Counted from the first letter of the stretch, positions 3,252 through 11,350 are shown. The stretch: 20,929 nucleotides of DNA from Promethearchaeota archaeon (GCA_027031765.1 JALVPN010000031.1:13685-34613), one strand, 5' to 3'. A program made the numbers and translations. Notes: generated by a model not told the origin, from the sequence alone.

Positions 3252-3659
3252 ATGGGGTGGGCCCTTGTGAGTAGGGACCCGGAGTCAGTGCTCCTGGCCG
3301 GCATGTTCCTCATGCTTGTGGGACTGGTCGTGCTTGCCATCTCGGGCGGCGGTGGGGACGGCGGGATCTTTGTGTTCCCCTTCTTCTTCGTGAGTACCAG
3401 CGGCCCCGCAGGCATTGTGCTGGGCACCATCATGCTGGCCATCACGATATTCATGGTATTCTATTTCATGAGGGCGATGATGGTCGGGCCAGCACCCCCC
3501 TATGGGGCGGGAGAGGACGACCGGACACCCTTCTCCATGCACCGCGATGCCGTCTGGCGTACATGTCCGGTGTGCGGACGCCCTCTTGCACCAGACCACA
3601 GGTTCTGCCCCACCTGTGGCACCCAAGTGGACAGCGACACGGAGCACTGGGACATGTGA
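3252..3659 (+). CDS. Membrane protein with C-terminal double zinc ribbon, 135 aa
   Basis: Hydrophobic segments LLAGMFLMLVGLVVLAI and GIVLGTIMLAITIFMVFYF; C-terminal CPVCG...RFCPTCG. Confidence 0.8.
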   Translation: MGWALVSRDPESVLLAGMFLMLVGLVVLAISGGGGDGGIFVFPFFFVSTSGPAGIVLGTIMLAITIFMVFYFMRAMMVGPAPPYGAGEDDRTPFSMHRDAVWRTCPVCGRPLAPDHRFCPTCGTQVDSDTEHWDM

Positions 3660-4150
3660 AGGGGGCCGGGGAGTGGGGTACCGTGGAGATAAGGCGTCCG
3701 ACACCGGCAGACGTTGACCGGGTCTTTGAGATTGAGCAGCAGTCATTCGCCAGGCCTTGGGACAGAGAGGCGTTCGAGCTACTGGCCGCGTGTAGAGGGG
3801 ACTACAACTGGGACGTGGTGACATACTACCTCAGAGTTGCGGTTGAGGGGGCTGAGGTCATCGGGTACGTCGCGTGGAGAGTGGACAGGCAGTCGAGGGA
3901 GGGACAGGTGGACAACATTGCGGTCAGCGCCGAGTGGCGCCGCAAGGGTATTGGGACACGCCTCCTCCGACTTGCACTCAGGCTCATGAAGGAGGACAGT
4001 GCCATGTCCTGTGTGCTGCAGGTACGTGAGAGTAACCGTGCAGCCCAAGCGCTCTACAGGAAGATGGGGATGACGCCTGTGGGACGGGTGCCAGAATACT
4101 ACGGTGATGAGGACGCCCTCGTGTACGGCATCGACCTCGACAGTATATGA
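3656..4150 (+). CDS. rimI: RimI/Ard1-like GNAT N-acetyltransferase
   Basis: NIAVSAEWRRKGIGTRLL (acetyl-CoA motif A), LQVRESNRAAQALYRKMG, YYGDEDA. GTG 3656 overlaps the upstream stop (GTGA); GTG 3683 is an alternative start. Confidence 0.85.
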   Translation: MKGAGEWGTVEIRRPTPADVDRVFEIEQQSFARPWDREAFELLAACRGDYNWDVVTYYLRVAVEGAEVIGYVAWRVDRQSREGQVDNIAVSAEWRRKGIGTRLLRLALRLMKEDSAMSCVLQVRESNRAAQALYRKMGMTPVGRVPEYYGDEDALVYGIDLDSI

Positions 4151-4250: not shown

Positions 4251-7200
4251 CTACTGTCTGACCCGACTCCTCGTCAGGCGTGGCCCCAAGATGTCGTGGT
4301 AGAGACGCAGGTACGATGCGTCTGTCGAGACAAGGGCCAGAGGGCGCTCAGACTCAGTGGCACCACCCACCAACACCTCGCGGTCGTCAGCCACTGCCAT
4401 GAGCATGGGAACCCGCACCCACCATATGCGCCACCCCTTCGGGAGCTCCGTGCCCTCCGGGAGCTCTGTGCCCTCCGGCAGCACCAGCACCCTGCGGTGT
4501 CTTGCCTTGACCTTGGCAAGGCGCTTCATGTCGACGAACCCGACATCCGTCACCGAGAGGAGCACCGAGTCAGATGCACGACTTGCCATGTCCATCATGT
4601 GCGCACGGATCTCCTCTCGGCCAGTGATGAACCACGAGTGCTCCGGCGACACGGACTGGAGTAGTTCTACGGCCTCCTGTACCGATGCGAGCGCCGAGGC
4701 CGACTGTTCCACGGACGACGTTGTGGACTCTATCAGCTCTGTGACCTCGTTGGACAGTAGTTCAAGGGCCTCCTTCTGACCCCTAGACCACTCGCGGAAC
4801 ACCCTCTCAATCTTCGCACCGAGCTTGTTTAGTATCTCGTTCCGGCGCTGTCGTTCATCGGCGGTTGCCTCTGTCGTGGCATTGGTCACTGCCGTCACGG
4901 CATCCGACAGCTCGTGACCGGCCTGTACGACGTTCCCACGTAGGTCCTTCATGAGCGCATGCGACCTGTCACTGAAGTCGCTCTTCAGGCCAAGGCCAAT
5001 CGACTCGAACCTCCTAGATGCCGTTTGGTTGCTGGTAAGTGCGGCCTGGAGCGCAGACTCCAGCACGTGGTCGCGCGCCCCGAGGGCCTCCCTGATCCAC
5101 GAGTCTGTGAAAGTGTTGGCCTCCTTCACAGCGGCCTCGAGGGCCGTCTGGTACTCTTCGGCCCGGGCATCGAGCTGTCTCAGCACCTCATTCTTCTCCT
5201 GTCCAGTGCTGATGGAGGCCTCTTCAGCAATAGCAGTGGTGACATCACTTATGGACTGTGTGAGCGTGTCCAGCAGGCCCCGGGCATTGTCAAGGGCATC
5301 GGCACTCGTTGCAGCGAACTTGTCCGCATGGCTGTGGAGGACACCCTGTGCCTGTTGGAACATCTCCTCCGCAATTGACCCGAGGCTCTCTACCTGGGCA
5401 TTGCCCCTCTGCTCCACGCGAGACGCAGCCTCACGAGATGCATCTGTAAGGTACTGACGCATGCCCTCAATGTACTCCCTTATCTTCGTTGCCAGGCCTT
5501 CGAGGTCAGCGGTGAGTTGCGAGGCCGCGTTGTCGACTGCCATGGACACCGCATCGAACGCCATTGAGGCCTCCAGCTTGTGGCCGTCCACCTCTGTAGA
5601 TACTGCCTCTCTGGCTGAAGCACGCGCTTTCACGCCAGAGGTCTCGCTCTTCACAAGGGAGGCATGGTACGACTCGACAAGTGCTGCTGCGCTCTTGGCC
5701 ATGTCCGACGCAATCTTGTCGAGGGCCTTGCTCACACTGGTGACGGTCCGCTTGCCGGCATCACTCTCTTCAGATGTTAGGCGCTCGACCTCCGACTCTG
5801 TTGCAGACAGCGTCGCTTGGAGAGAGGTATGGAGCGCATCCCGGGTGCCCTGGAGGCGGCCAGTGACGTTGTCCCGGGCGCTCTTCACCGATGCCTCAAA
5901 CTCCCTTGACATCTGCACCATGCTGTCCCCGAGTTGCTGCACGGTACCGCTCTCGACCTCACGCAGGGCCTCCTCAGTGCCCCGTATCGCACCCTCCACC
6001 TGCTGGAGCACCCTGGCCATGGCCTCCGACATCTCATGGCGTTTCTCTGCCGTGAAGCTCTCAAGCGCCTCCTTTACTGCCCGCAGTGACCTTGTGGCCT
6101 CGTCAATCCGCTGCGCGACGAAGGACTTGAACTCAGTCCTCATCTTGGCCGAGTCCTCGCCGAGTGACGCGAGCTCGTTCTTGAGTGCGTTCTTGAACTC
6201 TGCGTGTGCCGTTGCAATGAGCTCATGTGCCTCGATGGTCTGGCTTGCGATGAGGCCGTTGAAAGTGGCCTCCATGCTCTGGGTCAGGTTGATGAACTGG
6301 CGGGTGATGTCCTCAAGGCGCATGTGGAACTCCTCACGGATGCCCCGGGCCTGCTCCTCAATGCTGGCCACCTGCTCGGAGATGTTCTGTTCCACCCGCT
6401 CCTCCATGCCCTCTGCCAGAGAGTTCAGACGGCCAATGCTGGAGGCCACCCGCTCGTCGAAACGCTTGCTCACGCTCTCATATATTGTCCGGGCCTCGTC
6501 CAAGTGCTTCTCAGCAGCAGTGTCGAGCTCCGAGAGGACCTCATTCAGACGGGCCCCCACACTTGACTCGAAGTCGTGTAGCGACTGTTTCATACCAGTG
6601 ATTGCGGTCTCGTGGCGTGTTGTGGTCGACACCAGTACGTTGCTGAATGCCGATTTGAGGCGGCTGCTCATGTTCTCCGCCAAGTTCACGAACTCTGTGG
6701 CCTCAGTGTCCAAGATTGATGCTATGTCTTCAAGAGCAGCCCTGAACCTGTCGTCGAGCATGGTAGTGGTCTGTTCGGCCCACTCGTCGAGCTGACCCTT
6801 GATGTTGTTCCCCGTCCCCTCTACGCGCCTCAGTGTAGACTTCATGTGTCGTCCGACCAGTCGTATGATGTCGCCCTTTGCCTCACCAAGTCGGGACTCA
6901 AAGTCTGTGGCTATGCTTGAGGACATCGTGCGGAGGGCACCATATTCCCGTGCGAGTTCAGAGTTCACCTTGTCGAGGAACCCGGTCAGGCTGTTCCGTA
7001 CGGCTTGGATGTAGGCGTTGTCAATCGACGCGACCTGGTCCAGGTGGGTCATGACGGAGCGTCGCCCCGACTCGACCGCATTCTTGGCGTCCTGCGACCA
7101 GGTGGCAATGTCAGCGTCGGCAGCTGCGACCTTTTCGGCAGCCTGCTGCACTGATACCATGACAAACTCCCTCAGGGCCGCGACCTCCTCACGGCCACGT

Positions 7201-8147
7201 CGCAACAGCTCGTCCAAGGCCTCGTGGGCAGCCTGGTACGCACTGTCGACCTCGTCGTCAAATGTTGAACGCACCTGTGACAGGTCAGTGGAAACAGCAT
7301 CGAGGACACCGACGCCAGCGGTCACAACGTTACCGGTCTGCGTGTGCAGGGCGTCGACGAACCTCTTCAGCACCGCTTCCAGGGCCGCCTCGAAAGAGGA
7401 CAGTGCCGAGTCGACAGCAGCACGTGTGCCCTCCACTACCGCACGGGCCTCCTCGTCAAGCCTTGTAATGGCTACGGCCGGCCCCGGACGCGCCCCCGCA
7501 AGCCACTTGTCGAAACTGGCACGTACTGCACCGAGCTCTGCAGTAAGGTCCTGCTGCACCCTGTCAAGGTCGGCCTGCAGGCGCTCAAGGCCGCTGCCGA
7601 AGCTGTCATCGATGAGCGAGTTCAAGCCTGAGACCATGTCGCTGACCCTGTCCGACATACTGGAGAGGGCCCCATTGGCGGCATCGACCACCTTCTCGAC
7701 CTGTGTCTGGGCCAAGGACGCGATGTTCTCCTCGTACCCGTCCATGACGCCCCGCACCTCATCGGCGGCCTCAGCAGAGGTGCGCGCCGACTCTGCCACT
7801 ATCGAGTCGAGCTGGCCCGAGTACTCCTTCAGTGCTGTGATGATTGATGACTGTGAGGCCGCCAGGCTGTCGACCAACGACTTGAGGAGGCCACCGACAC
7901 CCAGGTATGGGGGGAGAGCCCGGTACACAGGGACGACCCCTTCCAGTTGGATGACAAGCCCCTTCTTGACAAGCCGCTTCAGTGCGTTCCCGACGCGTGA
8001 GAGGGGCTCACCAGTGATCAACGCAACAGCCCCTGCAGTCATGTGGCCCCCAAGATAGATGGGGACCAGGACCTTCGCCTCTGTCTTTGACACACCCATA
8101 GCGGATGTCAGTACTGACACGACACGTTCCAGCTCACGAATGCTCAA
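4251..8147 (-). CDS. Giant TrmB-family protein, 1298 aa: N-terminal TrmB-like wHTH, ~1100-aa helical/coiled-coil insert, C-terminal TrmB effector-type domain
   Basis: N-terminus MGVSKTEAKVLVPIYLGGHMTAGAVALITGEPLSRVGNALKRLVKKGLV...YRALPP. C-terminus WFITGREEIRAHMMDMASRASDSVLL...LMAVADDREVLVG. TTG start supported by a GAGGTGA SD 8 nt upstream. Confidence 0.85.
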   Translation of the reverse strand: MSIRELERVVSVLTSAMGVSKTEAKVLVPIYLGGHMTAGAVALITGEPLSRVGNALKRLVKKGLVIQLEGVVPVYRALPPYLGVGGLLKSLVDSLAASQSSIITALKEYSGQLDSIVAESARTSAEAADEVRGVMDGYEENIASLAQTQVEKVVDAANGALSSMSDRVSDMVSGLNSLIDDSFGSGLERLQADLDRVQQDLTAELGAVRASFDKWLAGARPGPAVAITRLDEEARAVVEGTRAAVDSALSSFEAALEAVLKRFVDALHTQTGNVVTAGVGVLDAVSTDLSQVRSTFDDEVDSAYQAAHEALDELLRRGREEVAALREFVMVSVQQAAEKVAAADADIATWSQDAKNAVESGRRSVMTHLDQVASIDNAYIQAVRNSLTGFLDKVNSELAREYGALRTMSSSIATDFESRLGEAKGDIIRLVGRHMKSTLRRVEGTGNNIKGQLDEWAEQTTTMLDDRFRAALEDIASILDTEATEFVNLAENMSSRLKSAFSNVLVSTTTRHETAITGMKQSLHDFESSVGARLNEVLSELDTAAEKHLDEARTIYESVSKRFDERVASSIGRLNSLAEGMEERVEQNISEQVASIEEQARGIREEFHMRLEDITRQFINLTQSMEATFNGLIASQTIEAHELIATAHAEFKNALKNELASLGEDSAKMRTEFKSFVAQRIDEATRSLRAVKEALESFTAEKRHEMSEAMARVLQQVEGAIRGTEEALREVESGTVQQLGDSMVQMSREFEASVKSARDNVTGRLQGTRDALHTSLQATLSATESEVERLTSEESDAGKRTVTSVSKALDKIASDMAKSAAALVESYHASLVKSETSGVKARASAREAVSTEVDGHKLEASMAFDAVSMAVDNAASQLTADLEGLATKIREYIEGMRQYLTDASREAASRVEQRGNAQVESLGSIAEEMFQQAQGVLHSHADKFAATSADALDNARGLLDTLTQSISDVTTAIAEEASISTGQEKNEVLRQLDARAEEYQTALEAAVKEANTFTDSWIREALGARDHVLESALQAALTSNQTASRRFESIGLGLKSDFSDRSHALMKDLRGNVVQAGHELSDAVTAVTNATTEATADERQRRNEILNKLGAKIERVFREWSRGQKEALELLSNEVTELIESTTSSVEQSASALASVQEAVELLQSVSPEHSWFITGREEIRAHMMDMASRASDSVLLSVTDVGFVDMKRLAKVKARHRRVLVLPEGTELPEGTELPKGWRIWWVRVPMLMAVADDREVLVGGATESERPLALVSTDASYLRLYHDILGPRLTRSRVRQ
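4441..4476. repeat. Two-copy 18-bp tandem repeat inside the giant TrmB CDS
   Basis: gggagctccgtgccctcc / gggagctctgtgccctcc, 17/18 identical; gives LPEGTELPEGTELPKG on the minus strand. Confidence 0.9.
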
Positions 8148-8155
8148 TGTTCAGG

Positions 8156-8162
8156 TCACCTC
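8156..8162 (-). promoter_or_regulatory. Shine-Dalgarno GAGGTGA for the giant TrmB gene
   Basis: Reverse complement of tcacctc, 8 nt before the TTG at 8147. Confidence 0.7.
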
Positions 8163-8207
8163 GCTCAGGCTGGGCCTCCTACGCCCAGCAGTGGATGGAC
8201 ACACCGG

Positions 8208-9014
8208 CTATTTCGACGCCATGGCCTGGGACACCGCTACGAACACCTGACGGATGTCGCCCACCTCCACGGGGACGCGGGTACCGTCACCGACTATTTC
8301 CAGCAGCACCTCAACCCCCTCGTCAGTACTACTGACAGAAACAGACTCGAAGCTCTGGGACACGGACTCCTTCAGTACCCGTCGGATTGCACCGGTCTTG
8401 ACCCCGGGCACTATGACCAAGACACCCCACCAGTCCTGTGTGAAGTCCTTCGCGTCAGCCGTCACACCATAGTGCTGTGAGAACAGCTCCACGTACATTG
8501 AGAGGGTCTCAAAGGACTCTATGGACTTGTGGACCGGGTTCATGGTCACAATCCCGCGCCCAAAGTCAAAGTGGAACAGCAGGTCGTCGAGTGCCACGAG
8601 CAGCAGGTCGTGTTTCCGCACTACAGACATCTTCTTCCGGATCTTGCGCAGCCTCGATGTGAACTGACGTATCGAGCTCATGCGGAGTGCAGAGAGGAGG
8701 CCATGTATGGGCATGTGGCGGTCATCCATGTTGGTACCCTTGTCCTCAAGGACGAAACGCCGGATCTGTTCGAGGTACTGGCTGTAACAGAACGACGGCA
8801 AGTCCTGCGGGTCGACACCAAGGTCGATAAGGACATTGAGGAAGTTGCGGTTCTTGCATGCTGGACGGAGCGTGCAGCCAAGACGGTCGTCCTGACAGAC
8901 CCTGCACTTCTCTTCATGGAGCTCGATGAGTTCTCTTGCGAGCTCTGCGTCAGCGGAGGGGTTGAGCAGGTTCAGCCTCTCGCTCAGTTCTTTACTGTGC
9001 TTCTTCAGCTCCAT
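8208..9014 (-). CDS. Hypothetical protein with N-terminal four-Cys cluster, 268 aa
   Basis: ATG-start ORF with globular composition and motif CRVC-x6-C-x5-C; directly upstream of and co-oriented with the giant TrmB gene. Confidence 0.8.
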   Translation of the reverse strand: MELKKHSKELSERLNLLNPSADAELARELIELHEEKCRVCQDDRLGCTLRPACKNRNFLNVLIDLGVDPQDLPSFCYSQYLEQIRRFVLEDKGTNMDDRHMPIHGLLSALRMSSIRQFTSRLRKIRKKMSVVRKHDLLLVALDDLLFHFDFGRGIVTMNPVHKSIESFETLSMYVELFSQHYGVTADAKDFTQDWWGVLVIVPGVKTGAIRRVLKESVSQSFESVSVSSTDEGVEVLLEIVGDGTRVPVEVGDIRQVFVAVSQAMASK

Positions 9015-9273
9015 GGACTCTCATCTCGGTCTGTAATGCAGGGGGAGCGGCCACGTCCGTGTGAGTAGCAGTGGTCTCCAGGTCCTTCTGGTCACACTAC
9101 CGGGTCAGACAGTGACCGCATGATTATAATGTTGTCTCATCTCATCAGCGTAACACGTCATTTGGGCCAGTCGACCATAGAGGCGGGCTGCACACCACGT
9201 TGGGCACACAGCACCAGTACGTTGGCGGGACAACTATGGGCCCGCCGCCGGCATGTATCAAGTGGTGGGTGGG

Positions 9274-10386
9274 TCAGCTGTTCCGGGCCATCTCCTTAAG
9301 CTTTGCACCCCACGTACGGATCTCCTTGCTGAGCCGTGCTATGTCGTTCTCGTTCAGCGTGGCCGTGGGCGGGTAGGACTTGAGTTCGCGGGCACGCTTT
9401 CCGAACTGGAACAGGACAGGGGTGTGGCCCTTTATCATTGTGGTGATCTGATCCCTGACACGCTCGAGTGCCGCGGCCATCTCATATGCCTCGGTGTGTG
9501 GAGTGACCATCTCAAGGAGGTAGTCCATAAGGCCATCAATCGTGGTCGGCAGTGGCTCGTCCGGAGCCACAGGATGACGGGCGGTGGTGACTGGGGCCTC
9601 GTCAGTGGTAGTGACCACCGGCGTAGACTCACGGACAGGCTGCACGGACTGTGCCACCTCCCTGACGAGTAACAGTGCCTCTGCAACCTCTTCAAGGGCC
9701 TTGTTGTACTTTCTCTCGATATCGTCCAGTTGCCGCACTATTATGCTCACAATCTCGCGGGTCTCGTTGAGGGACTCGCCGAGCTCGCTGACGTTGTCAC
9801 TGATCTGTGACACACTGGCGACGTACTCTTCAAGCGAGTCAATCTTCTTTGTCATCGTCTCGACATAGGGTGGGTCACGTAGGCCATCCACGACGCTGGC
9901 CACCGAGCTTACGGAGGCGAGCGTGTCGTCCATCTTCTTCAGGAGGACTTCAGTACCCATTGACTGCTGGATGTCGGCCAGCTGTTCTGCAAGTGCCTTC
10001 ACAGACGAGTGGGTCGACTCGATGCCCTCCCTCACAGCCTTGCCCGAGTTGCCAATCTTGTTCAGTGACGCGCCAATGCCCTGGAGCTTGCTATCAATGC
10101 CGTCCACTTTCTTCGATATTGCTGCTGTAGTCTTGGCGCTCGGCACCTTCTTCAGCGCATCATTCACAGCCTTCAGAGAGGACTCGATACCCTCAAGCCT
10201 CTCGACAGGTGCTATGGAACGCCCAATCTCTGCCACCGCAGACTCCAGAGAGCCGAGCCGCTCTTCAATTGCTGGCACCGCGGCCAGGACCTTGATGACC
10301 CCACGTATTGCTGCAATCTCCTGTGCAACCCTGTCAATCTTGTCCATTAGGCCAGCAATATCTGGTGAGTCAGGACTTTCAGACAT
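9274..10386 (-). CDS. Segmented coiled-coil protein with Thr/Pro linker and ~90-aa C-terminal helical domain, 370 aa
   Basis: Heptad runs such as I90-V94-I97-L101-I104-L108-I111; linker ~250-280; GGTAGGAG upstream of the ATG. Confidence 0.85.
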   Translation of the reverse strand: MSESPDSPDIAGLMDKIDRVAQEIAAIRGVIKVLAAVPAIEERLGSLESAVAEIGRSIAPVERLEGIESSLKAVNDALKKVPSAKTTAAISKKVDGIDSKLQGIGASLNKIGNSGKAVREGIESTHSSVKALAEQLADIQQSMGTEVLLKKMDDTLASVSSVASVVDGLRDPPYVETMTKKIDSLEEYVASVSQISDNVSELGESLNETREIVSIIVRQLDDIERKYNKALEEVAEALLLVREVAQSVQPVRESTPVVTTTDEAPVTTARHPVAPDEPLPTTIDGLMDYLLEMVTPHTEAYEMAAALERVRDQITTMIKGHTPVLFQFGKRARELKSYPPTATLNENDIARLSKEIRTWGAKLKEMARNS

Positions 10387-10525
10387 AGTACTCCTACCTA
10401 TGGCGTAGTTGAGCAGTTAACTGACCACGCACACACGTATTTAGCGTTTCGCTATGCTGTCCTCGCGAGGGTAGCGCATCCCCTATACGGCAGTTGCTGA
10501 CGGGTCACAGGGCACCGTGACCACA

Positions 10526-11350
10526 TCATAGCCTGCTGGCACGGACGACCTCGATGCCGAGCGACTCCAGCAGTGAGAAGAGGCGGGCCTTCTGCGGGGC
10601 GTTCGTCCCCTTCCAGTCAATGACTGCAAGGTCGACCTGTTCAGCAGCCCTAGTGACCATCTGCCGCACCAGCGACTCGTCCAGCCCCTCAATGACGTAT
10701 TTCGGGGCGATGTGACCGACCACAACATCACTCTCCAGTACCACCCGGTTGAACTTTGAGGCGTAGTGTGGACCACCAAAGCCAATGGCTGCAGTCCGTC
10801 CAACCTTGGCCCGGGCACACTCCATCACCGCTGCGGCCACAGCCTGTGCCCCCTTGATGTCCCGCCAGTGTGCCTCATCGCTGCCGAGCTCTACGAACAA
10901 GAGGGGGGTGTCCATCGAGGTCGGGCCATGGTGTGTGACCTCAAGGGTCACATCAAATGCGTCAAGTGACAGGGCATCACGCTGTTCGTGTAGGGTCTGT
11001 AGGGCCACCGCCACCAGGCTGGCGACAGAACAGGACACCTCACGTGGGTTGCCGCCGTACTCTGCATCGGAGGTGAGGTTGCCCGTACTGTGTACAAGTA
11101 GGGCCGGACGACCGGACTCTGACCGGTGACGAGAGCAGAAGATGAAGACATCAGGGTGAAAGTGTTCCTCAAGATGACCTGCAAAAATGAGGTCCCTCTC
11201 AGTAGTTATCAGCAGTGTCCCCCTGTCGCACGAGTACACAGGGCTGCCCTCGAAGTGTTCGCCGGTCTCCTCGAAACCATGCTCGTGGATGAGGACGTCC
11301 TTGATTGTCTGGCTGGCCAGGTCACGTTGCGATGTGACCAGCACCCTCAC
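10526..11350 (-). CDS. dtdA: Archaeal D-aminoacyl-tRNA deacylase (DtdA/GEK1 family)
   Basis: FCSRHRSESGRPALLVHSTGN, EVTHHGPT, FVELGS and FGGPHYA motifs. GTG start overlaps the upstream stop. Confidence 0.92.
   Translation of the reverse strand: MRVLVTSQRDLASQTIKDVLIHEHGFEETGEHFEGSPVYSCDRGTLLITTERDLIFAGHLEEHFHPDVFIFCSRHRSESGRPALLVHSTGNLTSDAEYGGNPREVSCSVASLVAVALQTLHEQRDALSLDAFDVTLEVTHHGPTSMDTPLLFVELGSDEAHWRDIKGAQAVAAAVMECARAKVGRTAAIGFGGPHYASKFNRVVLESDVVVGHIAPKYVIEGLDESLVRQMVTRAAEQVDLAVIDWKGTNAPQKARLFSLLESLGIEVVRASRL

Follow-up and report, generated by a model that had tools for sequence, protein, structure and literature searches.

What would be built by a TrmB-type protein in which about 1075 residues with an 11-residue rhythm lie between the two terminal domains? 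The question is raised by a gene on the minus strand of a 20,929-nucleotide stretch of Promethearchaeota archaeon DNA (the window, to which all coordinates refer). An initial annotation, which had counted 100 residues of what it called a TrmB insert, reported a hendecad (11/3) rather than a heptad pattern, and pointed out that hendecads are found in near-straight or right-handed coiled coils and also in lipid-binding helices. The gene and this segment are positioned as follows:

4251..8147, minus strand: the whole gene, 1298 aa with a TTG start (ORF list and translation); a TrmBL2-like head split by a hendecad rod
6393..6692, minus strand: the segment first noticed, residues 486-585, lying on the N-arm towards the apex; residues ~651-750 are predicted to pair with it (from i+j = 1236)

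Periodicity of the insert

Translation of the gene gives exactly the residues that had been read at 0, +4, and +7 of each 11-residue unit, counting from F486 over residues 486-585. The Kyte-Doolittle spectrum of this segment peaks at 3.66 residues with a power of 143, compared to a shuffle maximum of 47 ± 12 (periods 2 to 6), and none of 5000 shuffles equals it; thus, the pattern over these 100 aa is indeed one of 11 residues and not of heptads. Position +8 of the segment is partly hydrophobic too. Hydrophobic residues at 0/+4/+7 together with half-hydrophobic residues at +3/+8 constitute the canonical hendecad core a-(d)e-h, in which a, e, and h are core positions and d and i are half-core.

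The segment might have been an exception within an insert that otherwise peaks at 3.5, and the same analysis over the entire insert shows that it is not. Residues 90-1190 (1101 residues) have one coherent peak, of power 985, at 3.662, while shuffles of the whole insert give 64 ± 11; the observed value lies ~84 standard deviations higher, and the power at 3.5 is ~10. Across residues 81-1180, each of the 21 overlapping 110-residue frames has its maximum at 3.60-3.68, with negligible power at 3.5 in every case. The insert has the properties by which a hendecad coiled coil is recognized: a sustained 11/3 period and an a-d-e-h core, both above chance. The phase, when followed at exactly 11/3, is constant at about -80 degrees over residues 90-332 and stays within about ±30 degrees over residues 343-1135. 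Between these two regions lies the sole register slip in the rod:

7113..7145, minus strand: register slip near residues 335-345, a jump in the 11/3 phase from about -70 to +20 degrees (about +98 degrees, equivalent to one residue)

The shifted core positions at the slip are also visible in the family profile, and it is this single-residue slip that places the global peak at 3.662 instead of 3.667. Hendecad power dips at residues ~200-222, 607-640, 816-850, and 970, without any loss of register.

In the family profile, large hydrophobic residues occupy position a in 71%, position e in 60%, and position h in 56% of cases, and the two flanking positions in 26-32%. Over the rod, the share of large hydrophobic residues is 26.6%, which is close to 3/11; the rod has a net charge of -67, it has 2 prolines in 1075 residues, and there is no cysteine among residues 90-1190. 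A search at the DNA level found no tandem repeat under the rod, so the pattern does not come from a recent repeat expansion. Furthermore, a second coiled coil is encoded close by:

9274..10386, minus strand: 370-aa heptad coiled-coil protein, a conserved neighbour (26/29 loci) and candidate partner

The spectrum of this neighbour peaks at 3.50 with a power of 186, and its power at 11/3 is 9. Because this adjacent protein is a plain heptad coiled coil, the hendecad pattern is specific to the rod protein and not a consequence of local composition.

Terminal domains and the wider family

The two ends of the protein show that the term TrmB insert was aptly chosen:

7908..8102, minus strand: N-terminal TrmB-type wHTH, residues 16-80 (Pfam PF01978, 32.4 bits vs a cut-off of 25.6)
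4254..4634, minus strand: C-terminal PLD-like domain, residues 1172-1298, the N-subdomain of the TrmB effector domain without the sugar-binding barrel

A wHTH profile made from 26 orthologs matches TrmB (3qph) and TrmBL2 (5bqt) with an E-value of about 7e-8. Within the recognition helix and wing, K or R is kept in most orthologs at residues 51, 54, 57-58, 61-62, and 76, and the basic wHTH head is a putative DNA binder. At the other end, positions 3-98 of the 233 in Pfam PF11495 (Regulator_TrmB) match 14 of 26 orthologs (best E 1.1e-6); the score of the window protein itself is 15.1 bits, which is under the cut-off of 22.2. A profile of the C-domain yielded no significant match to the PDB by sequence; rather, the likeness came from a fold search. 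With an AF2 model of the C-domain (pLDDT 88, pTM 0.83), Foldseek retrieves TrmBL2 5bqt (TMq 0.73) and TrmB 2f5t (rmsd 3.5), with NucT also among the best matches.

The protein is thus like TrmBL2 (5bqt, 5bpd, 5bpi, 5box) and TrmB (3qph, 2f5t) in having a wHTH, a helix that follows it, and a PLD-like C-domain, and it is like TrmBL2 in having no sugar-binding barrel. It differs in size. Members of the TrmB family have a short linker helix and a total length of about 260-350 aa, whereas this protein has 1298 aa; the linker helix of TrmBL2 and TrmB has about 30 residues, and its counterpart here is a hendecad coiled coil of about 1075 residues. As judged from sequence and fold model, the predicted architecture is that of a TrmBL2 whose linker helix has grown about 35-fold.

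Word-based homolog searches are swamped by low-complexity words (the full protein gave 1 match and the C-terminal region 3), and wider relatives were sought by whole-genome and HMM searches. A six-frame search located the gene in 81 of the 87 genomes of this Asgard class, representing all 17 genera, with identities of 20-37% over a span of ~1290 residues. From these, 63 full-length orthologs were extracted; their median pairwise identity, taken from a 50-sequence alignment, is 34%. Each of the 49 single-copy orthologs tested peaks between 3.658 and 3.664, an ortholog with a 232-aa duplication (G022) peaks at 3.668, and the family profile shares the peak. The rod alignment has no conserved stretch of 7-10 columns.

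The length of the insert is nearly fixed. In 59 of the 63 full-length orthologs, the 1101-residue insert has no indels at all. (It should be noted that G022 was excluded from this alignment.) Of the four exceptions, L031 has two single-residue deletions, L043 and L044 each have a one-residue deletion at 1168, which is outside the rod, and L033, the most divergent sequence, has small gaps with a net change of zero. The 125-residue C-domain has about 7 indel events.

When the C-domain profile was run against 1.84 billion representatives, it retrieved 146 proteins only; the family is rare. Most of these proteins have 600-1900 aa with the domain at the very end, and 90 of the 146, the window protein and four close homologues included, also carry the wHTH, with rods of about 60 to 1668 residues between the two domains. 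Nearly all of the long rods among these 90 peak at 3.64-3.68. In 28 listed representatives with a mutual identity of <50%, the rod has exactly 1059 residues, and other subfamilies have exact lengths of 691 (five members) and 731 (four members); there is no overall mod-11 or mod-22 quantisation of rod length between subfamilies, for which the anchors are good to within a few residues. Every member with a name belongs to the Asgard archaea (Thor-, Hel-, and Promethearchaeota), and the annotations read hypothetical or HTH-domain protein. In other Asgard families, versions of 711-1796 aa share the periodicity, and length variants in other Asgard lineages span 700-1900 aa. The genome under study contains a second copy of 1097 aa, which peaks at 3.668 and lies amid housekeeping genes (its neighbours encode a class-I tRNA synthetase, an amino-acid kinase, and PolX). 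A search of the published literature found no description of a wHTH-hendecad rod-PLD architecture.

Pairing of the two halves of the insert

The layout of the rod is as follows:

6306..7880, minus strand: N-arm, residues 90-614, about 48 hendecads (Fourier phase track; AF2 helices 91-219 and 221-614)
6294..6305, minus strand: predicted turn or two-fold axis, residues 615-618 (non-helical stretch in AF2; centre of the covariation band and of charge antidiagonals 1235-1238)
6168..6299, minus strand: tip block, residues 617-660, where conservation is highest in the protein (column entropy; a cluster of nearly invariant residues)
4656..6293, minus strand: C-arm, residues 619-1164 (AF2 helix 619-1164; phase track; covariation with the N-arm)

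An AF2 run on the insert with 49 sequences gives a low-confidence model of the rod (pLDDT 61, pTM 0.30) that consists of three helices, residues 91-219, 221-614, and 619-1164 (129, 394, and 546 residues, respectively). Besides a single-residue helix break at 220, residues 615-618 are the sole internal coil. Low-confidence patches are mirrored in pairs, 173-190 with 1045-1057 and 466-475 with 763-800. The mean column entropy is 1.13 in the tip, about 1.5 in the head domains, and 1.6-2.7 elsewhere in the rod.

Residue covariation indicates how the arms may be arranged. Mutual information with APC correction, computed from an alignment with Neff = 44 and added up along antidiagonals, peaks at i+j = 1236 with a smoothed z of 14.7, while the best value elsewhere is 4.7, and 16 of the 25 highest-scoring antidiagonals (about 2100 in total) fall in the band of i+j from 1229 to 1258. 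When the N-arm is divided into 66-residue blocks from i = 156 to 611, 6 of the 8 blocks peak within this same band, which argues that the pairing spans nearly the entire rod; covariation is weak in the blocks i = 90-155 and 288-353. A test based on the sign of charge, which is free of entropy or phylogeny bias, gives a similar answer: of about 2000 antidiagonals, those with the most negative charge correlation between columns are 1237, 1235, and 1238. Split by hendecad position, the charge compensation is noisy. A volume-compensation test along antidiagonals gave no signal near 1236, and a mirror correlation of small residues gave no signal. Covariation and charge compensation at i+j of about 1236 are what would be expected of helix-helix packing along the hydrophobic seam. 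In addition, when a is set at 486+11k, a sum of 1236 places a on a' and e on h', which is the layering expected for an antiparallel core.

Two further observations have the same centre. There are 12 conserved glycines, and the only mirrored pair among them (184+1051 = 1235) is formed by the two most conserved Gly residues in the arms:

7596..7598, minus strand: G184, Gly in 97% of orthologs
4995..4997, minus strand: G1051, Gly in 94% of orthologs

The second observation is the diverged 232-aa tandem duplication of G022, whose unit extends from about 503/507 to 734/738 and is centred on residues 618-622; by estimate, a randomly placed unit would be as symmetric in about 1% of cases. The two copies are 74.5% identical at the nucleotide level, and for this reason the duplication is not an assembly artefact. 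Taken together, the sequence data make an antiparallel pairing of the two halves of the insert about residue ~618 a well supported prediction. Such pairing also offers a reason why indels are almost lacking at an identity of about 34%, since the arms would have to stay in register and an indel in one arm would not be tolerated.

Covariation is blind to whether the partner residue lies on the same chain or on another, and consequently, both a fold-back and an intermolecular dimer fit the antiparallel signal. In a dimer, two continuous helices of ~1075 residues would lie head-to-tail to form an antiparallel homodimer of about 160 nm, each end of which would combine one chain's wHTH with the other chain's PLD-like domain. 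Antiparallel coiled coils of the TRIM type are built as intermolecular head-to-tail pairs. An intermolecular two-fold axis yields identical covariation at constant i+j and identical charge compensation, and a central, symmetric tandem duplication would lengthen a dimer cleanly. Moreover, the hendecad register is continuous across the apex, with no phase change and no break in hydrophobic spacing from residue 600 to 640. This continuity, which a hairpin does not call for, counts against a hairpin, and because of it the dimer stays a real rival. However, the AF2 helix is broken at 615-618, and the axis region, with its conserved Gly 624 and Gly 631, invariant F-N-G, weakened hendecad power at 607-640, and top conservation, has the look of a structured turn. 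Furthermore, a fold-back retains the ancestral TrmBL2 head geometry, in which both domains belong to the same chain. The break at the axis, the conserved Gly and F-N-G residues, and the retained head geometry together favour the fold-back, and the dimer is considered an unlikely arrangement, though a serious one.

Alternatively, the insert could be a chain of compact helical bundles, similar to those of spectrin or apoLp-III. The dips in hendecad power (~200-222, 607-640, 816-850, and 970), the presence of several conserved Gly or Pro residues at core positions within 886-963, and the low AF2 confidence could all be accommodated by such a chain. This idea is very improbable, since the covariation lies on a single antidiagonal from i of about 156 to 611 and not on local contacts, the AF2 helices have 129, 394, and 546 residues, and the register continues through the regions of low hendecad power.

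The lipid-binding side of the initial annotation, in which amphipathic 11-mers coat a lipid or other hydrophobic surface in the manner of apolipoprotein, perilipin, synuclein, or LEA proteins, is not supported and is very improbable: the 11/3 periodicity is common to those families, ApoLp-III is a weak match, and Pfam Apolipoprotein A1/A4/E (PF01442) scores 117.5 bits vs a cut-off of 90, a match that is explained by shared 11-mer periodicity and composition; but the hydrophobic stripe is narrow (3/11 strong positions, an arc of about 66-130 degrees), the net charge is -67 with no concentration of basic residues at the stripe edges, 2 prolines in 1075 residues do not provide proline-punctuated 22-mers, an N-terminal wHTH takes the place where a signal peptide would be, a surface coat would permit indels, and the covariation and charge compensation between the arms point to protein-protein packing. 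It is the other side of that annotation, a near-straight or right-handed coiled coil, that the antiparallel pairing evidence upholds.

The preferred reading is that residues ~90-1164 would form one long α-helical coiled coil on an exact 11/3 repeat, of which residues 486-585 would be an ordinary stretch, and that this antiparallel coiled coil is most likely a fold-back hairpin on a TrmBL2-type head. We assign this reading as a whole a probability of roughly 65%. Residue i would pair with ~1236-i, most likely within one molecule, and the chain would turn at 615-618. The hairpin would be a nearly straight rod of roughly 78 nm with about 525 residues per arm. If the rod both extends the TrmBL2-type linker helix and folds back on itself, the wHTH and the PLD-like domain would consequently be positioned side by side at the base.

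Known rods and a possible role

Known hendecad coiled coils extend over tens to a few hundred residues, while the rod protein has about 96 hendecads and one slip; to our knowledge, few non-heptad coiled coils would match the rod in length and regularity. The right-handed part of the tetrabrachion stalk resembles it in its 11/3 period, its a-d-e-h type core, and its nearly straight or slightly right-handed bundles. The peripheral stalks of A/V-ATPases are likewise hendecad coiled coils with an 11/3 period and an a-d-e-h type core (PMC3293630, PMC6131620), and the antiparallel coils of TRIM proteins contain hendecad stretches (PMC12549529).

Proteins of similar shape differ in repeat and in head. 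The best Foldseek matches of the rod model are MukB, Smc5/6, condensin, JetC, Rad50, and chemoreceptor hairpins, at TM-scores of about 0.1. The arms of SMC, MukB, and Rad50 are like the rod in forming a long antiparallel coil of length-matched arms, with a conserved apex and with heads that are joined at the base. However, these arms are interrupted heptads whereas the rod is purely hendecad; the ABC ATPase head and the hinge of SMC/Rad50 are absent (a Pfam scan finds neither and AF2 gives a 4-residue turn); and there is no Rad50-type CxxC zinc hook, residues 90-1190 being free of Cys. The hairpins of chemoreceptors (methyl-accepting chemotaxis proteins), to which Foldseek assigns a probability of 0.98 in the case of 2ch7, are similar in having their tip as the most conserved part, a length that is fixed by class, and a richness in Ala, Ser, and Thr; the Rad50 hook, too, has a conserved tip. 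Yet chemoreceptors are membrane receptors built as heptad four-helix bundles of 24-44 heptads, whereas the rod is cytoplasmic, with about 48 hendecads per arm and a wHTH head. Apolipoprotein A1/A4/E (PF01442) shares the amphipathic 11-mer period and a Pfam score over the gathering threshold, but it is a secreted protein whose class-A 22-mers are proline-punctuated and have a broad non-polar face, while the rod has a narrow face, is acidic, contains almost no Pro, and bears intracellular heads.

The genomic context contributes to ideas about function. Directly upstream of the rod gene, and between it and the gene for the 370-aa coiled coil, there is a second candidate partner:

8208..9014, minus strand: 268-aa cysteine-rich protein, 60 nt upstream of the rod gene, a conserved neighbour (28/29 loci)

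The 268-aa protein has no Pfam family and no Atlas match. From the other side, a GNAT acetyltransferase gene, which is present in 28 of 29 loci, converges on the rod gene. No ATPase gene was found adjoining either copy in this genome.

In Thermococcales, the abundant chromatin protein TrmBL2 coats DNA (PMC4877046), and it forms a roadblock for archaeal SMC (PMC11840125). The resemblance to TrmBL2 and the synteny suggest that the rod protein may serve as a fixed-length spacer or tether: the basic wHTH head would hold DNA as TrmBL2 does, and the highly conserved tip would be the docking site for a partner, or for a second tip, at a distance of about 80 nm. A tentative proposal, and one more apt to be wrong than right, is that these proteins are Asgard-specific struts of ~80 nm whose head is anchored on chromatin and whose tip docks a partner or a second tip, thereby setting a DNA-to-structure or DNA-to-DNA distance.

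Whatever the function, the family provides a natural system for investigating 11/3 coiled-coil geometry and the selection of length. A chromatin-protein head, a rod of fixed length, and an invariant tip are conserved across this class (81 of 87 genomes searched) in proteins that carry no annotation beyond 'hypothetical' or 'HTH domain-containing'; if it is true that the rod tethers or spaces DNA, then it would bear on how the nucleoid is organised in Asgard cells.

Genes around and across the rod gene

The neighbourhood of the rod gene (4251-8147, minus strand) is conserved in the 29 ortholog loci that were compared, and consists of the following genes:

8208-9014, minus strand: Cys-rich protein of 268 aa without a known family, 60 nt upstream of the rod gene (28 of 29 loci)
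9274-10386, minus strand: strictly heptad coiled-coil protein of 370 aa, beyond the 268-aa gene (26 of 29 loci)
3563-4150, plus strand: GNAT acetyltransferase on the opposite side, convergent with the rod gene (28 of 29 loci)

The rod gene is itself overlapped by an antisense ORF of 444 aa (window 5461-6795, plus strand). Because ortholog conservation across the rod gene follows the minus-strand frame, this ORF is probably spurious.

A second giant hendecad protein with a TrmB end, 1097 aa in length, is present in the same genome (G000:C143:19882-23175, equivalent to positions 7883-11176, plus strand, of locus L090). It is matched by both Pfam TrmB and Apolipoprotein, and its hydrophobicity spectrum peaks at 3.668 residues per turn with no register slip. 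Beside it lie genes for a class-I tRNA synthetase, an amino-acid kinase, and PolX; there is no ATPase operon among its neighbours.

Length variation among the orthologs

Of the 64 orthologs, just one has a large indel: L050, from genome G022 (G022:C115:23079-28647). Its frame of 1574 aa contains a diverged tandem duplication of 232 residues (74.5% nucleotide identity), which is centred on the rod apex. Small indels also occur within the C-terminal PLD-like domain, where a tandem repeat with an 18-nt unit (window 4435-4482; 2.7 copies, 90% match) codes for a duplicated PEGTEL motif in a loop. In one genus, the rod gene apparently occupies two adjacent frames of ~394 and ~973 aa (G023:C3:838698-842559; G021:C80:24828-25865); the apparent break falls near residue 355, not far from residues 335-345, where the rod has its one register slip. 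A genuine division of the gene, a frameshift, or a sequencing error could produce this arrangement.

The register slip and the facing arm

Within the proposed antiparallel rod, N-arm residues 273-350 (window 7098-7331), which hold the slip, face C-arm residues 886-963 (window 5259-5492), where a conserved Gly/Pro run (G886, G915, G945, and P963) occupies core positions. The two features meet roughly halfway along the rod, and covariation is weak where they face each other. Together, the slip and the Gly/Pro run could constitute a matched discontinuity or an elbow.
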